Source: an uncultured Candidatus Saccharibacteria bacterium
GTDB taxonomy: Bacteria; Patescibacteriota; Minisyncoccia; Phycocordibacterales; UBA2100
Length of the DNA: 64,000 bases
Assembly: GCA_964512835.1 (NCBI GenBank)
Contig: CAZELA010000003.1
Span: forward strand, 15,516-79,515
Direction: 5' to 3'
Shown here piece after piece: positions 3,333 through 57,693 of this stretch. The translations under genes and the position numbers were made by a program. The notes beneath the pieces were generated by a model. The model did not search any database. It worked only from the letters and a program-made list of their open reading frames with translations, and was not told where the DNA came from. Position 1 is the stretch's first letter; each line of letters opens with the position of its first letter.

Positions 3333-4121
3333 TTAAACGACCGAATAGCGGGACCATCGCTTCAGACCGCTCTTTGTGACCTTGCCATCCGCGACCAGGG
3401 TCAGGAGCTCACGCTGGATCATCTTTTCGCTGTATTCGGGCAAATTCGAGCAAATGTCCTTAATACCCATGGAGCCGCTGGATCGAAGAATTTCCAATAT
3501 GCTTTGAGTCCGCACGCTCATTTGTCCGTTATGTGTGACAGTCTTCACCGCCGAAGCAGCGACCTCCCGTGTATCCGTTGCCTCCCCCGCAACACGAACG
3601 TCTTTTATGTCCTTTACTGCATAGGTCGCAGCGCGAGCGGGCAATGTTCCGACATCCAATAGCTCATCCTTTGATATAACGACACTTTCTGAAAAGTTTG
3701 TTCGCTGCGATACATGCATAAAATTGCCAAGCTCATCGAGCGCTTCAACGATGGCGCTCACATTTTGGGTAGAAGCAAATCCGGATATCGCCAGCATCCG
3801 CACCAGTGATATGAGGTGGCGGATCGAAGATACAACAGACACAACTCCACCGGAGTTCGACGAACGCATATCATCTCGGACCGAAAGCACTGACGACAGC
3901 ATCTGCATGGATTCCCTCCGAACCAGCCCGCGCAACGGCTCATCCTGATCAACGTGGTTGGTCAACAAATGGACTGCTGCCGCGATTCGCTCAGCACGAC
4001 GATAGGCTCTATCGGCCGCTCGATTATCACCAAAAGGATTCAAACGGACATTCTGAGAGTCGAAGAATTTTCCGAGATTTTCCGTCTTTTGTATGTCCTT
4101 ATTGTCGTCCATTTTATGCAT
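3333..4121 (-). CDS. Hypothetical protein with a C-terminal winged-helix-like segment
   Basis: 262-aa ORF. The C-terminus 'SILEILRSSGSMGIKDICSNLPEYSEKMIQRELLTLVADGKVTKSGLKRW' looks like an HTH/wHTH domain. I recognise no family for the N-terminal part. Confidence 0.5.
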   Translation of the reverse strand: MHKMDDNKDIQKTENLGKFFDSQNVRLNPFGDNRAADRAYRRAERIAAAVHLLTNHVDQDEPLRGLVRRESMQMLSSVLSVRDDMRSSNSGGVVSVVSSIRHLISLVRMLAISGFASTQNVSAIVEALDELGNFMHVSQRTNFSESVVISKDELLDVGTLPARAATYAVKDIKDVRVAGEATDTREVAASAVKTVTHNGQMSVRTQSILEILRSSGSMGIKDICSNLPEYSEKMIQRELLTLVADGKVTKSGLKRWSRYSVV

Positions 4122-24400: not shown

Positions 24401-27283
24401 TTAGATCTCCAACGTAACACGCTTCTTCGGTGCTTCGACAAAATCGATCGCGAGCACCCTGGTCGCGCCGGAGAGTTCACCCACGAATTGCTTGAGGATC
24501 GCAATCTCGTCGCTCGGCGCTTCGATGACCGCGCGTGTAACGGAGTCTGCCGGTGCGAGATTCGCATCCTTGCGAGCACCCTGCAACAGGCGTCGTACTT
24601 CGCGCACCAGTCCTTCCTGCAACAACTCTTCCGTGACGGTGGTATCGAGCGATACGCCGACACCGCTCTCAAACCGGACCTCTTTGACGTTCACCTCATC
24701 CTTAATGAGTTCAAGAAACTCATTGATGCCCGGTGTCTCGGCGCCATACACATCGGTCGTGCCGATCGCGAGCATGCGCAGCGGCTGACGGACATTCAAC
24801 TTCTTGTCCTCTCGCTCTTTGAGCGCCTGGGACACAATGAGACGCGTCGCGAACATGCGTGTAAGCAGCTGCGCAGCATCGGTGTCATGCGCCAGCATTT
24901 CCGGCCACGTAGAAAGGTGGACGCTTTCTTCGTCCTCTCCTTCGCGTACGGCTTGGAACAGGTACTCAGCATAGAACGGCATGGTCGGAGCCATCACGCG
25001 CGAGAGCGTATGCAGCACATAGCGCAGCGTCGCCAGCGCCGCTTTTTTATCCGAACCCTCCTCTTTGAATCGCTCACGGGAACGGCGCAGGTACCACACG
25101 GACAGGTCGTCGATGAACTGCGGAAGCGGCCGCACTGCCTCGTCGAGCTCGTACGCCTCGAACCCTTCGGTTGCTTCACCGACCAGGGCATTTACACGAG
25201 CGATGATCCACCTGTCCAGAACGTGTGCACTCTTGAAGTCTCGGACCGTACCGTCTTCATAGAGTTTGTAGAATTCGAGCACGTTATTGAGGCGACCGAT
25301 GTTCTTCTTGAGCGTTTCGTCGACTCCGTTTTCCGAGAAGTTCAGGTTCTCTGCTTTCAAGAGCGGCGACGAAAGCATGTACAAACGCAACGCGTCGGCT
25401 CCGTACTTGTTGATCACATGCATCGGGTCGGGATAATTGTTGAGACGTTTCGACATCTTCTTGCCGTCTTCGGCGAGCACGATCCCGTGCGCCACGACGT
25501 TCTGAAACGCGTTCACATTGAACGTTGCTCCTGCGAGCACGTGCAGGTAGTAGAACCATGCACGGAACTGACCCGTGTATTCGGTTATAAACTGGGCCGG
25601 GAATGTTTTCTCGAACCGGTCTTTGTTCTCGAAGGGATAGTGCACCTGGCCGTACGGCATCGATCCTGAATCGAACCATGTGTCGAGCACATCGGGAATG
25701 CGGCGCATGGTTTTGCCGCAGGTGCACGGTACGGTTACCTCGTCGATGATGTGTTTGTGGAGGTCGTCGACGGTGGTTCCGCTCGCCGCTTCGAGCTCTG
25801 CGACCGATCCGAATACACGCTGGGTTTTGCACGATTCGCACACCCACATCGGAATGACGCTCGCCCAGAATCGCTGACGGCTGATGCCCCAATCCTTGGC
25901 ACCTTCGAGCCATTTACCGAATAACCCCTCCTTTATATGCGACGGTGACCAGTTCACGTTCTGTGCGGTTCGGAGTAACTCTTCTTTCAGTTTTGAGACC
26001 GAAACGAACCACGACGATGTCGCGTAGTTCAACAGCGGAGTGTCGCAACGCCAGCAATGCGGATACGAGTGCGTGATGTTCTCTTTTGAAAAGAAGGTAC
26101 CGTGGCCCTGAAGATATTTGAGTACCGCGATGTCCATCGCCATGCGCACGCGATCCTCGGCGTTCGGCTTAACTTCCATGCCGGCAAAGTCCGTAACCTC
26201 GGACTTAACCGTCCCGTCAAAGTTCACATGCTGCACGAACGGCAGATTCACCTGCTTCAGCAGCTCCCAGTCTTCGGCACCGAATGCGGGCGCTTCGTGT
26301 GCGATACCGGTACCGCTATCAGCCGTGATGAAATCCGCTGCGTAGATTTTCCAACCGTTCTCGCGATTCTTGAGCGTTTCGTCTTTGGCGTAGTAATCAA
26401 AAAGCGGCACATACTGTTTGCCGACGAGTTCACTACCCTTCTGCGTTCGAACGACGCCATACTCCTGTCCGCCAAAAATACTATCGAGCCGATCTTTGGC
26501 GAGAACGAATCGAACCGTCTCCCCCGTCCCGTCGTCCTTTTTCTCGACAGTCACGTAGTCGATATCCTTGTTGACCGCGAGTGCGACATTTCCCGGGAGC
26601 GTCCACGGGGTTGTGGTCCAGGCGAGGTATGACAACTTCGGGTCCTCAACGGAGCGAAATTCGGCGGTCACCGAAATATCCTTGATCTCTTTGTAACCCT
26701 CACTCACCTCTTGTTGGGAGAGCGTAGTCTCGCAGCGCGTGCAGATGTGCATCGAGCGGTAGTCCTCATACACGAGACCCTTGTCGTAGATATTCTTGAA
26801 CACCCACCACACGCTTTCCATGTAGGGCTTATCCATCGTGCGGTACGCGTTCTGCATATCCACCCAGCGGCCCGTACGCGGAATGATCTGTTCCCACTCG
26901 TGCGCATACGTCATCACTTGATCACGGCACGCCTCGTTGAACTTCGCGATACCGAAGTCCTTGATGTCTTTTTTGTGTTTAAAGCCGAGCTGTTTTTCGA
27001 CGATGTTCTCGATAGGCAGTCCGTGACAGTCCCACCCCCACACACGAGGGACCGAGTAGCCGCGCATGGTTTTGTATCGCGGTACGACGTCTTTGATCAT
27101 GCCGGTCACGAGGTGGCCGTAGTGCGGCAGACCGGTTGCAAACGGCGGTCCGTCGTAGAAAACAAATTCACCGTTCGGCGCGTCCTGCGCAACCGATTTC
27201 TCGAAAATCTTGTGCTCGTTCCAAAACGCCAGGATCTCCTCCTCGCGCTTGGCAACCCCTGATTTGTCGGCGTTTTCAGCCAT
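24401..27283 (-). CDS. ileS: Isoleucyl-tRNA synthetase (type 2, eukaryote-like)
   Basis: 'PPFATGLPHYGHL' (HIGH), 'KMSKRLNNYPDP' (KMSKS), CP1 editing domain and zinc-binding Cys cluster; 960 aa. Confidence 0.97.
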   Translation of the reverse strand: MAENADKSGVAKREEEILAFWNEHKIFEKSVAQDAPNGEFVFYDGPPFATGLPHYGHLVTGMIKDVVPRYKTMRGYSVPRVWGWDCHGLPIENIVEKQLGFKHKKDIKDFGIAKFNEACRDQVMTYAHEWEQIIPRTGRWVDMQNAYRTMDKPYMESVWWVFKNIYDKGLVYEDYRSMHICTRCETTLSQQEVSEGYKEIKDISVTAEFRSVEDPKLSYLAWTTTPWTLPGNVALAVNKDIDYVTVEKKDDGTGETVRFVLAKDRLDSIFGGQEYGVVRTQKGSELVGKQYVPLFDYYAKDETLKNRENGWKIYAADFITADSGTGIAHEAPAFGAEDWELLKQVNLPFVQHVNFDGTVKSEVTDFAGMEVKPNAEDRVRMAMDIAVLKYLQGHGTFFSKENITHSYPHCWRCDTPLLNYATSSWFVSVSKLKEELLRTAQNVNWSPSHIKEGLFGKWLEGAKDWGISRQRFWASVIPMWVCESCKTQRVFGSVAELEAASGTTVDDLHKHIIDEVTVPCTCGKTMRRIPDVLDTWFDSGSMPYGQVHYPFENKDRFEKTFPAQFITEYTGQFRAWFYYLHVLAGATFNVNAFQNVVAHGIVLAEDGKKMSKRLNNYPDPMHVINKYGADALRLYMLSSPLLKAENLNFSENGVDETLKKNIGRLNNVLEFYKLYEDGTVRDFKSAHVLDRWIIARVNALVGEATEGFEAYELDEAVRPLPQFIDDLSVWYLRRSRERFKEEGSDKKAALATLRYVLHTLSRVMAPTMPFYAEYLFQAVREGEDEESVHLSTWPEMLAHDTDAAQLLTRMFATRLIVSQALKEREDKKLNVRQPLRMLAIGTTDVYGAETPGINEFLELIKDEVNVKEVRFESGVGVSLDTTVTEELLQEGLVREVRRLLQGARKDANLAPADSVTRAVIEAPSDEIAILKQFVGELSGATRVLAIDFVEAPKKRVTLEI

Positions 27284-27300
27284 ATTCGATGAATCCTATC

Positions 27301-27337
27301 AAAAATCAAAGACCGGCGCGAAAAGCGAGCGCCGGTC
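27301..27337 (-). terminator. Rho-independent terminator (GACCGGCGC-loop-GCGCCGGTC plus TTTGATTTTT on the minus strand), ending 17 nt upstream of the ileS ATG
   Basis: Read from the sequence. The position suggests an attenuator or leader for ileS as well as a terminator for the upstream small ORF. Confidence 0.65.
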
Positions 27338-27359
27338 TTGATATGAGGAACGGATTGCT

Positions 27360-27563
27360 CTACCCCGAAACGAGACGGGGCCTGAACGGGGGTTCGACGA
27401 AGTGCTTGCTGTGAATGGCAGCCGGCATGTGTGGACCGGCGGCGCCGGTGAGCCTGGCCAGGTCGGTCGAGTTGTTGCAGATCCCCTGCACGTAGGTGCC
27501 GTTGACGACAACACCGCAGAGCTTGGGATAACTACCGTCGGTCACCTGAGACACATTGTCCAT
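27360..27563 (-). CDS. Small hypothetical protein (67 aa) or part of an ileS leader RNA
   Basis: GGAGGA RBS 8 nt upstream of the ATG and a terminator after the stop. No homologue recognised; may be non-coding leader instead. Confidence 0.4.
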   Translation of the reverse strand: MDNVSQVTDGSYPKLCGVVVNGTYVQGICNNSTDLARLTGAAGPHMPAAIHSKHFVEPPFRPRLVSG

Positions 27564-27662
27564 TCTCGTGTTCCTCCGCTTTTGAGCACAGGAAGCTGAT
27601 CTTCCCTTGCCATGATTAAGCGTACCAACCTCTTGATTTGGAGCAAGCGTTGTATGTGATGT

Positions 27663-27688
27663 AAAAGCCGGCGTTCATGCCGGCTTTT
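27663..27688. terminator. Bidirectional terminator AAAAGCCGGC-gttcat-GCCGGCTTTT
   Basis: Perfect hairpin with A/T runs on both sides. Confidence 0.7.
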
Positions 27689-27705
27689 GTCTTGCGTCGA
27701 GTGCT

Positions 27706-28014
27706 TCAAGGTATCGGTACCGCAACGATTAGGCCGCCCTGGTCGACGGTCTCGGCGAGCCATTCGGCCTCGCCATCATGCGAGCATCGCATAACGCGCG
27801 AGCGACGCGAAGGATCATGTCGATTCTGCAGAAACTGATACCAGAACAGTCCGCGCGCGAACAATTGCTTCACCGCCTCGCCGGAAGCAACAGTCTCTCC
27901 CTCGAGGTCCTGATTCCAATCAATGACGGACTCGGGAGCCACCGGCGGAGCCGAGTACACGGCTACCGGAGCGGATAGTTGCACGATGGGAACCTGGACT
28001 TTCGGATGTCGCAT
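27706..28014 (-). CDS. Hypothetical protein (102 aa)
   Basis: AGGAGG RBS 6 nt upstream of the ATG, terminator immediately downstream. No family recognised. Confidence 0.5.
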   Translation of the reverse strand: MRHPKVQVPIVQLSAPVAVYSAPPVAPESVIDWNQDLEGETVASGEAVKQLFARGLFWYQFLQNRHDPSRRSRVMRCSHDGEAEWLAETVDQGGLIVAVPIP

Positions 28015-28083
28015 GTCGTCCTCCTGCCTATTTCCACAGCCAGACTATGCAAACTATAGAAAAAAGCAATTTCGGAATACAGG

Positions 28084-28110
28084 AAAGTCCGGCGCGGGCG
28101 CCGGACTTTG
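28084..28110. terminator. Terminator after the HAD hydrolase gene (AGTCCGGCGC-ggg-GCGCCGGACT)
   Basis: Read from the sequence. Confidence 0.6.
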
Positions 28111-28120
28111 AAAAACCCTG

Positions 28121-28753
28121 CTACTGCAGGAAATACTCTTTGGGAAGCTCGCGCAAGTCGCGAACGATTGCGTCGGCCGGATAGTCCGTGCGGTCGTCAG
28201 AGACCAGCGCAACGCATCGCATACCTGCGGCGCGTGCACCGATCATACCGCTCACACCATCCTCGACGACGATGCAGTCGCGCGGATTCACTCCCATGCG
28301 CGCCGCAGCGAGCAGAAACACATCCGGCGCAGGTTTCCCTTGTGCAACCTCTTTTGAACTTGCAAAGGCGTCGAAGCGCCATTTGATACCGATCGTGCGC
28401 AAGACCAAATCGACGACCGGAGGCCGCGACGCGGATGCGACACCGAGCGGCGTCAGGCCCCAGAGCGACTCCAGTCGTTTGACCGTACCTTCAATCGGCG
28501 TGAACTCATCGACACACGCCATGAACCGCTCCGCTTTCCTGTCGGAGAGCGCCGGATCGTGCGTATACGGCAACCCGCGATCGGCGTGAAGCTCTGCGAA
28601 CTGGTCGCGAAGCGACCTTCCCGAAAAGCGTCGGGTGATCTCTTCGGGCGTGATCTCGATTCCGAACAACTCCTTCAGCATTTCGGATTCGATACGCGAG
28701 TGAATTCGCTGCGAATCGGCAAGCACGCCGTCCATATCGAAAATAACAGGCAC
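28121..28753 (-). CDS. HAD-superfamily hydrolase (beta-phosphoglucomutase-like subfamily IA)
   Basis: 'VIFDMDGVLADS' motif I and downstream HAD motifs. Likely GTG start (M)PVIFDMDG preceded by a GGGAGG RBS; the track ATG at 28852 overlaps argS. Confidence 0.85.
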   Translation of the reverse strand: MPVIFDMDGVLADSQRIHSRIESEMLKELFGIEITPEEITRRFSGRSLRDQFAELHADRGLPYTHDPALSDRKAERFMACVDEFTPIEGTVKRLESLWGLTPLGVASASRPPVVDLVLRTIGIKWRFDAFASSKEVAQGKPAPDVFLLAAARMGVNPRDCIVVEDGVSGMIGARAAGMRCVALVSDDRTDYPADAIVRDLRELPKEYFLQ

Positions 28754-45075: not shown

Positions 45076-45160
45076 GCGCAGGTGGCGAAATTGGTAGACG
45101 TACTACCTTGAGGTGGTAGCGCCCGTTAAGGGCATGGGAGTTCGAGTCTCCCCCTGCGCA
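45076..45160 (+). tRNA. tRNA-Leu (anticodon GAG)
   Basis: Acceptor GCGCAGG/CCTGCGC; anticodon stem CTACC/GGTAG; loop TTGAGGT; long variable arm; T-arm GGGAG-TTCGAGT-CTCCC. Confidence 0.88.
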
Positions 45161-57607: not shown

Positions 57608-57693
57608 TTACTCCGTTTTCCCTCTTCCGCGCGCACTTCGGTGCGCGCGGTTCTTTGTTGCATGAACGTTCACAGAAAAGCTACTATGCTGCC

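Follow-up and report, generated by a model that had tools for sequence, protein, structure and literature searches.

A probable terminator–promoter junction upstream of a putatively leaderless ileS gene in a Candidatus Saccharibacteria genome

We analysed a 64,000-nt stretch (hereafter the window) of contig CAZELA010000003.1 from an uncultured Candidatus Saccharibacteria bacterium (assembly GCA_964512835.1), and in particular the region directly upstream of ileS, the gene for isoleucyl-tRNA synthetase (IleRS). On the minus strand, ileS is preceded by a small open reading frame (ORF) of 67 codons, orf67, and a hairpin with an adjoining T-run lies between the two. Comparison with related genomes makes it likely that the terminator of the small gene is followed here by an independent ileS promoter and by an ileS mRNA with no leader or with one of up to 4 nt. 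The region is thus most likely an ordinary terminator–promoter junction in a genome using leaderless mRNAs, and not an amino-acid-sensing switch. In detail, the locus would consist of two back-to-back transcription units. The first, orf67 with its own promoter and a strong Shine-Dalgarno sequence (SD), would end at the hairpin and the U-tract. The second would be ileS, transcribed from the sequence TGaTAGGAT, whose first base is also the last one of the U-tract; the polymerase would start 6–10 nt downstream, and the mRNA with its 0–4 nt leader would be translated without an SD by leaderless initiation. The terminator would insulate ileS from upstream transcription with no isoleucine sensing involved, and it would also keep leadered ileS mRNA, for which no SD would be available, from being formed.

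The hairpin has a GC-rich stem of 10–11 bp (8 GC pairs in the 11-bp version) and a 9-nt loop. Alone, it folds at −22.6 kcal/mol, compared with −9.3 ± 2.3 kcal/mol for shuffled sequences (z = −5.8; 0 of 200 shuffles as good). It sits about 20 nt after the orf67 stop codon, and its U-tract ends 17 nt before the ileS ATG. A terminator at this place had been proposed in a sequence-only reading of the same DNA, and it can be read directly on the minus strand. A stable GC-rich stem-loop with a directly adjoining U-rich tract, 3′ of a coding sequence, is the structure of an intrinsic terminator, and the hairpin probably terminates transcription. The standard terminator scan missed it, because the scan is limited to loops of 8 nt. 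With loops of 3–10 nt allowed, the window yields 15 loci with a hairpin and a T-run and dinucleotide shuffles yield 1.7 ± 1.0, an approximately ninefold excess; such loci are a real feature of the genome. In stem, short loop, 9–10 nt T-rich tract and distance from the stop codon, the hairpin resembles canonical Rho-independent terminators. Unlike in these, the U-tract upstream of ileS is fused to the putative −10 element of the next gene, one base being common to both.

To the 3′ side of the hairpin, the candidate promoter stands out when orthologous loci are compared. We considered ten regions upstream of ileS, those of the window and of the relatives L087, L168, L102, L008, L007, L009, L088, L090, and L029. 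The TG, TA, and AT of the motif TGnTAnnAT are the only invariant or near-invariant columns 5′ of the ATG; the motif is kept in nine of the ten regions, 6–9 nt from the ATG, with the variants TAGGAT, TACGAT, and TACCAT differing at the n positions. It is kept whatever the upstream gene is: argS (L007, L008), unrelated ORFs (L009, L088, L090, L102, L029), or orf67. The structures preceding it also differ. L102 has a homologous hairpin, GCCGGCGCG-TTT-CGCGCCGGC, and then CTTTGTTTTTT, which merges into TGCTACCAT-N7-ATG. In L008, another hairpin with a T-run occupies the same place, directly before the motif, and L007 has no hairpin at all, the argS stop codon being directly followed by TGCTAGGAT-N8-ATG. 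The motif thus behaves as an extended −10 element should, being a TGnTAnnnT sequence that orthologues share at a fixed short distance 5′ of the start, whichever gene precedes it. This suggests that TGaTAGGAT is the working ileS promoter and that transcription would start within 27284..27292 or at the A of the ATG. A promoter downstream of the hairpin was the check that the sequence-only reading had named beforehand, and the comparative evidence for the extended −10 motif supports it.

The start of ileS itself is sound, as TGA and TAG occur in frame 6 and 5 codons 5′ of the ATG (27283..27281) and the N-terminus of IleRS (MAEN..., EEEILAFW) aligns with its orthologues from residue 1; this ATG is therefore the first possible start. 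The earlier statement that ileS has no evident SD held in part. An AGGA is present at −14..−11 of the ATG, but it belongs to the −10-like motif and is not a conserved SD. Among orthologues it is replaced by ACGA (L168, L169, L088, L090) or ACCA (L102), while TG, TA, and AT are kept. The loss of AGGA with retention of TAnnAT indicates a −10-like promoter element, and we rejected the AGGA as a conserved ileS SD.

Conservation between orf67 and ileS was also compared segment by segment in a four-genome alignment of the window with L087 (88% nucleotide identity to the window, 96% amino acid identity in IleRS), L168 (76% in IleRS), and L169, a 1.6-kb contig. Third codon positions of orf67 are identical at 56/67 sites in L087, 36/67 in L169, and 28/59 in L168, that is, at 47–54% for the latter two. 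The segment between the orf67 stop codon and the hairpin is identical at 21/21, 5/21, and 7/21 positions, respectively. By contrast, the hairpin stems retain 20/20, 19/20 (an A-U to G-U change), and 20/20 positions and the U-tract retains 9/9, 9/9, and 8/9. The −10 motif reads TGATAGGAT in L087, TGATACGAT in L169, and TGGTACGAT in L168, with changes in the latter two at the n positions of TGnTAnnAT only. The spacer between the motif and the ATG has a constant length of 9 nt in all four genomes, with 9/9 positions identical in L087, 2/9 in L169, and 7/9 in L168. The fact that the stems, the U-tract, and TGnTAnnAT are kept while the flanks have diverged points to selection on the stem, the T-run, and the specified motif positions, and not on their surroundings. 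Moreover, the hairpin loop is 9 nt long in the window and in L087, 5 nt in L169, and 6 nt in L168; this variation favours an RNA hairpin over a protein operator of fixed geometry.

The putative leaderless mode of ileS expression has parallels elsewhere in the window. Nine times, the sequence TAnnAT is separated from an ATG by exactly 6 nt, and each of these ATGs is the start, at the 5′ end, of a long ORF; at other spacings there are 0–1 such cases each, except for three at 11 nt. Several of the nine have a TG extension, and six of the ORFs have family matches, five of them in Pfam (Table 1). The relatives show the same signal. A TAnnnT positioned ∼12 bp before the start codon is a published signature of leaderless genes (PMC3160421), and the window shows such a position-specific signal, with ileS and its N9 spacer as an outlier. 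In the −10 box ∼12 bp before the start and the lack of an SD, these genes resemble the "TA-led" leaderless genes of Actinobacteria and Deinococcus-Thermus (Zheng et al., 2011, PMC3160421; mycobacterial leaderless transcriptome, PMC4633059); in both cases, the signal has a sharply defined position and is found before genes that come first in their transcription units (PMC3160421). Unlike in the published genes, the first T of the ileS box lies 15 bp, instead of 12, from the ATG, and the box has a TG extension instead of a −35 element. Two other co-directional junctions of a terminator, a candidate promoter, and an ATG are found in the window, after genes for NAPRTase and an aminotransferase; the terminator and the −10 box are ∼25 nt apart there and fused at ileS. 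The TAnnAT signature also implies gene starts that are shorter than longest-ORF calls, for instance 559 aa for argS and 747 aa for FtsK. Our literature searches found no published description of leaderless initiation in Patescibacteria, or candidate phyla radiation (CPR), and nothing specific on T-boxes in CPR either.

Several observations weigh against the promoter-and-leaderless interpretation. The distance of 9 nt from the −10 motif to the ileS ATG departs from the 6 nt used almost exclusively by the leaderless genes of the window, and a start at the usual seventh base would leave a 3-nt leader, with which the efficiency of translation is uncertain. No sequence makes a convincing −35 element; TTCGCG, inside the hairpin and with an 18-nt spacer, comes closest. 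Any promoter activity would thus have to depend on the TG extension. In L008 this TG is missing, and an alternative AAGGA is found 5 nt before the start codon. The stems never vary among the four aligned genomes, and thus there is no covariation proof of the hairpin. In addition, we found no characterisation of the promoter specificity of Patescibacteria RNA polymerase in the literature. The sigma-70 consensus scan accepts only promoters with both hexamers and for this reason detected none near ileS.

The gene upstream of the terminator is a real, conserved gene, as judged from its substitution pattern. Compared with L087, orf67 has 13 nucleotide differences, 11 of them at the third codon position, and only two amino acids are changed. 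The ratio of nonsynonymous to synonymous substitution rates (dN/dS, Nei-Gojobori) is 0.049 in the comparison with L087 and 0.163 with L168, comparable to the values for ileS (0.034 with L087) and recO (0.022 with L087 and 0.111 with L168). An exhaustive HMMER and profile search yielded homologues in four clusters only (P0001, P0002, P0006, P0007), with 57–97% identity, and all four lie directly 5′ of ileS with a gap of 72–76 nt. The order orf67, ∼75-nt gap, ileS, recO, and a GNAT acetyltransferase gene recurs in L087, L168, and the P0006 contig (the latter compared by gene calls only), and L169 has orf67, a 72-nt gap, and ileS as far as the contig reaches. The 67-aa ORF and its GGAGGA ribosome-binding site had already been noted from the sequence alone. 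Protein-level conservation of the small ORFs, which that reading had named as telling against a regulatory leader, is seen for orf67 in both dN/dS and the excess of third-position changes, whereas the ORF further upstream, orf102, has a single cluster of homologues at 99% identity.

As to function, orf67 has no significant match to Pfam (PilE_C only, E = 0.05) or NCBIfam families, and its AlphaFold model has a pLDDT score of 57.6, too low for a fold search. Besides P0001 and P0002, the exhaustive HMMER search with orf67 gave two dubious matches to repeat proteins, P0003 and P0004. Residues 8–37 of orf67 (DGSYPxxCG...C) match a ∼110-aa repeat, present four times in the 444-aa protein P0003 (E = 3e-6); this relationship is doubtful, since the first cysteine is not conserved within the orf67 family. 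Upstream of orf67, the putative extended −10 element TGgTACGCT may serve as its promoter, judging by its sequence, and would give a 5′ untranslated region (5′UTR) of ∼48 nt, which carries a hairpin, GGGAAG-aucag-CUUCC, just before the SD. The 5′UTR is identical at 42/42 positions in L087 and 38/42 in L169, a conservation far above that of third positions of the ORF in L169. The region has no match to Rfam families.

A terminator hairpin directly 5′ of an aminoacyl-tRNA synthetase (aaRS) gene is also found in the ileS T-box leaders of Firmicutes and Actinobacteria (RF00230). The sequence-only reading had proposed a cmscan search and had seen no recognisable T-box; in agreement with this, cmscan against Rfam gave no T-box or riboswitch match in 27100..28300 at E ≤ 10, nor in the whole window at E ≤ 0.01, and the gathering-mode and permissive Rfam scans of the window gave only small-RNA or terminator-like matches at chance level. 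This negative result is meaningful, because the same permissive mode finds T-boxes 5′ of ileS in distant CPR relatives with E-values from 1e-7 to 1e-11. Divergent T-boxes lie directly 5′ of ileS in L019 (3156–3307, 61 bits), L023 (3738–3917, 53 bits), and L032 (61–388, 46–47 bits). All of these score below the Rfam gathering score of 93 and were missed in gathering mode; probably, Rfam-based annotation under-counts T-boxes in CPR. Unlike T-box leaders, the locus in the window has no covariance-model match that includes Stem I with its specifier loop or an antiterminator bearing the T-box sequence AGGGUGGNACCGCG, and its hairpin follows a translated, conserved protein gene. The only upstream complement that could form an alternative pairing with the terminator is CGCCGGTC, within orf67, and L087, L168, and L169 have not kept it. 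The TTGGTAC at 27628..27622 was considered as a T-box remnant and rejected, as there is no room for Stem I and the site fits the extended −10 element of orf67; moreover, the only TGGTAC string (27627..27622) reads TGATAC in L169 and loses the UGG needed for pairing with the CCA end of tRNA. As a separate observation, a GAGATGGTACCGCC-like string resembling the T-box core occurs 25–45 nt before the ileS start in L017 (∼3930–3945), L099, L106, L027, and L010, where the starts are putative GTG or ATG codons. Positions 3600–3985 of L017 have no Rfam match even at E ≤ 1, and the string may represent a compact version of the T-box or be of another nature.

These data allow the other explanations to be weighed. 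One of them, a leaky terminator within an operon, is unlikely but deserves consideration. In this case, one transcript, begun at the orf67 promoter or further 5′, would cover both orf67 and ileS, most polymerases would halt at the hairpin, giving a high orf67 to low ileS ratio, and ileS would be translated from the read-through mRNA with AGGA as a weak SD; this could coexist with the promoter. There is a precedent in Escherichia coli, where the T1 terminator between rpsU and dnaG in the rpsU-dnaG-rpoD operon tunes the gene ratios. Similarly, the terminator upstream of ileS separates co-directional, tightly linked genes, a small and probably well-expressed one before an enzyme gene. The linkage with a gap of ∼75 nt in five genomes agrees with this, as do the acceptable aligned spacing of AGGA in the window, L087, L007, and L009 and the run of argS into ileS without a terminator in L007, which indicates co-transcription in at least one relative. 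On the other hand, unlike in the E. coli operon, a conserved promoter motif follows the terminator, so that read-through is not required; this motif is kept irrespective of the upstream gene, even in the five relatives that have lost AGGA, and the 11-bp stem with its T-rich tail looks strong. The sequence-only reading had offered, as its second option, two small genes with terminator read-through feeding ileS. The small genes come closer to the truth, but most ileS mRNA probably does not arise by read-through. It is highly improbable that the hairpin is instead a DNA operator, with GACCGGCGC...GCGCCGGTC as the binding site of a dimeric regulator that would cover the −35 region of the ileS promoter. 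The inverted repeat is perfect over 9 bp, overlaps the expected −35 position, and has arms invariant across four genomes; however, the half-sites are 9, 6, 5, and 3 nt apart in the window, L168, L169, and L102, respectively, which a dimer of fixed geometry would not tolerate and an RNA hairpin does, and, as at the 14 other terminator-like loci, a T-run, here a conserved one, adjoins the repeat and a stop codon lies ∼20 nt before it.

The sequence-only reading had leaned towards attenuation or a novel ileS regulatory leader, and this is not borne out, given that orf67 is conserved as a protein and a promoter motif lies downstream of the hairpin. We consider very unlikely a novel leader responsive to isoleucine or tRNA-Ile, in which the transcript or translation of orf67 would control the terminator via an alternative antiterminator. 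The position of the terminator just before an aaRS gene does resemble T-box or leader-peptide control, many CPR relatives use T-boxes at ileS, a 436-nt region folds better than shuffles (z = −3.3), the 5′UTR of orf67 is unusually conserved, and a palindrome inside the ORF, ACCGGCGCCGCCGGT, could pair with a terminator arm. Still, this pairing is already imperfect in L087 (CGCCGGAC) and is lacking in L168 and L169, and we rejected it as an antiterminator; the 21 nt between the stop codon and the hairpin are not conserved; and no Rfam family, T-box or other, matches at E ≤ 10. Nor does orf67 look like a leader peptide of the ilv, thr, or his type: only two of its 67 codons are for isoleucine, it evolves under purifying selection at the protein level, and its stop codon is 20 nt away from the hairpin, too far for a terminating ribosome to touch the stem. 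An out-of-frame ORF that begins with TTG in the U-tract (MIFDRIHRIW..., 27309) was also tried as an isoleucine-rich leader peptide and rejected, as it starts after the hairpin and has no SD; its isoleucine-rich look results from the AT-rich sequence. Finally, there is a slim chance that the whole orf67 cassette (promoter, ∼48-nt 5′UTR with its hairpin, protein, and terminator fused to the ileS −10 element) is a dedicated regulatory partner of ileS in this lineage. This could operate by transcriptional interference, with polymerases terminating inside the ileS promoter and occluding it, or by action of the small protein or the structured mRNA on the expression or activity of IleRS. If true, such control would replace the T-box control used by relatives.

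The genes on the minus strand are, in order, argS, a HAD hydrolase gene, orf102, orf67, ileS, recO, and the GNAT acetyltransferase gene. The best genome matches of IleRS are Patescibacteria/CPR metagenome-assembled genomes, L007 (66% identity), L008 (63%), and L009 (59%). A metagenome scan with IleRS gave no relative closer than 64% identity, and the useful close relatives came from homologues of orf67. Contigs L001–L006 are near-identical and represent the same species (99.7–100% identity).

The segment between argS/HAD and orf67 (27629–28172 in the window, 3802–3935 in L087) differs among relatives. In the window HAD is accompanied by orf102, in L087 and L169 it stands alone, and in P0006 it is missing and two different small ORFs, of 93 and 74 aa, are present; every variant has its own GC hairpin at the end. 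In L087, the closest other genome, window segment 28172..27629 is replaced by 133 nt, and hence orf102 is absent there together with the hairpin that follows it. The sequence-only reading had correctly described both the 102-aa ORF with an AGGAGG ribosome-binding site and its bidirectional terminator, the latter seen as a symmetric hairpin. The GC content of orf102 by codon position (0.71/0.44/0.63) is like that of real genes; orf102 has a gene-like composition but is a variable insertion. Positions 1–284 of L004 are unrelated to the window upstream of 27726, though the contig is 99.97% identical downstream, and contig L006 ends at 27727; these breaks at the 3′ end of orf102 point to a strain-level rearrangement or an assembly break. 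Elsewhere in the window, a sixth tRNA (45076–45160, plus strand, 50.8 bits against a gathering score of 29) was seen only in the permissive Rfam run, its absence from the gathering-mode run being presumably due to speed filters.

Table 1. Coordinates of the features discussed, in window positions; promoter elements and the leaderless mode are predictions
Feature	Coordinates	Strand	Details
ileS	24401..27283	minus	class I isoleucyl-tRNA synthetase, 960 aa; Pfam tRNA-synt_1 (1e-131) and Anticodon_1
Spacer from −10 motif to ATG	27284..27292	minus	TCATCGAAT, 9 nt; length kept, sequence free
Segment between U-tract and ileS ATG	27300..27284	minus	GATAGGATTCATCGAAT, 17 nt
Putative extended −10 element of ileS	27293..27301	minus	TGaTAGGAT; its first T also ends the U-tract
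U-tract	27310..27301	minus	TTTGATTTTT, T-rich, 9–10 nt
Terminator hairpin, 3′ arm	27319..27309	minus	GCGCCGGTCTT
Terminator hairpin, loop	27328..27320	minus	TCGCTTTTC
Terminator hairpin, 5′ arm	27339..27329	minus	AAGACCGGCGC
orf67	27360..27563	minus	67-aa protein-coding gene; SD GGAGGA at 27577..27572
orf67 5′ region	27564..27627	minus	putative extended −10 TGgTACGCT at 27627..27619; ∼48-nt 5′UTR
Hairpin after orf102	27663..27688	minus	AAAAGCCGGC-ATGAAC-GCCGGCTTTT; symmetric A-run and T-run; −17.0 kcal/mol, z = −5.3
orf102	27706..28014	minus	102-aa ORF with AGGAGGA; part of strain-variable insertion
TAnnAT-N6-ATG start	4299	plus	FtsK
TAnnAT-N6-ATG start	11690	minus	TAGTAT-N6-ATG; junction with hairpin 11761–11735 after aminotransferase gene
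TAnnAT-N6-ATG start	16429	minus	AI-2E transporter; TGCTAGGAT-N6-ATG
TAnnAT-N6-ATG start	30495	minus	argS; agrees with 559-aa gene call
TAnnAT-N6-ATG start	41901	minus	
TAnnAT-N6-ATG start	45008	minus	
TAnnAT-N6-ATG start	45459	plus	
TAnnAT-N6-ATG start	50818	minus	PilM
TAnnAT-N6-ATG start	57694	plus	Vut_1 transporter; TACTAT-N6-ATG; junction with hairpin 57627–57650 after NAPRTase gene

None of these findings would be surprising to a specialist. Their value is partly corrective, as a terminator before an aaRS gene without an SD looks like an attenuator, and in genomes with leaderless mRNAs it can be a terminator–promoter junction. The T-box is absent at ileS in this lineage, as opposed to the T-box-bearing ileS of more distant CPR relatives. 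Moreover, orf67 defines a small orphan protein family strictly linked to ileS; what remains novel is this orphan cassette with its highly conserved 5′UTR, always attached to ileS, and the contrast with T-box-controlled ileS in other CPR. The window also provides evidence, at the level of sequence, for genes in a Patescibacteria lineage, ileS and argS among them, that would be leaderless and driven by extended −10 promoters, and leaderless genes in a CPR lineage affect the prediction of start codons and operons in such genomes.

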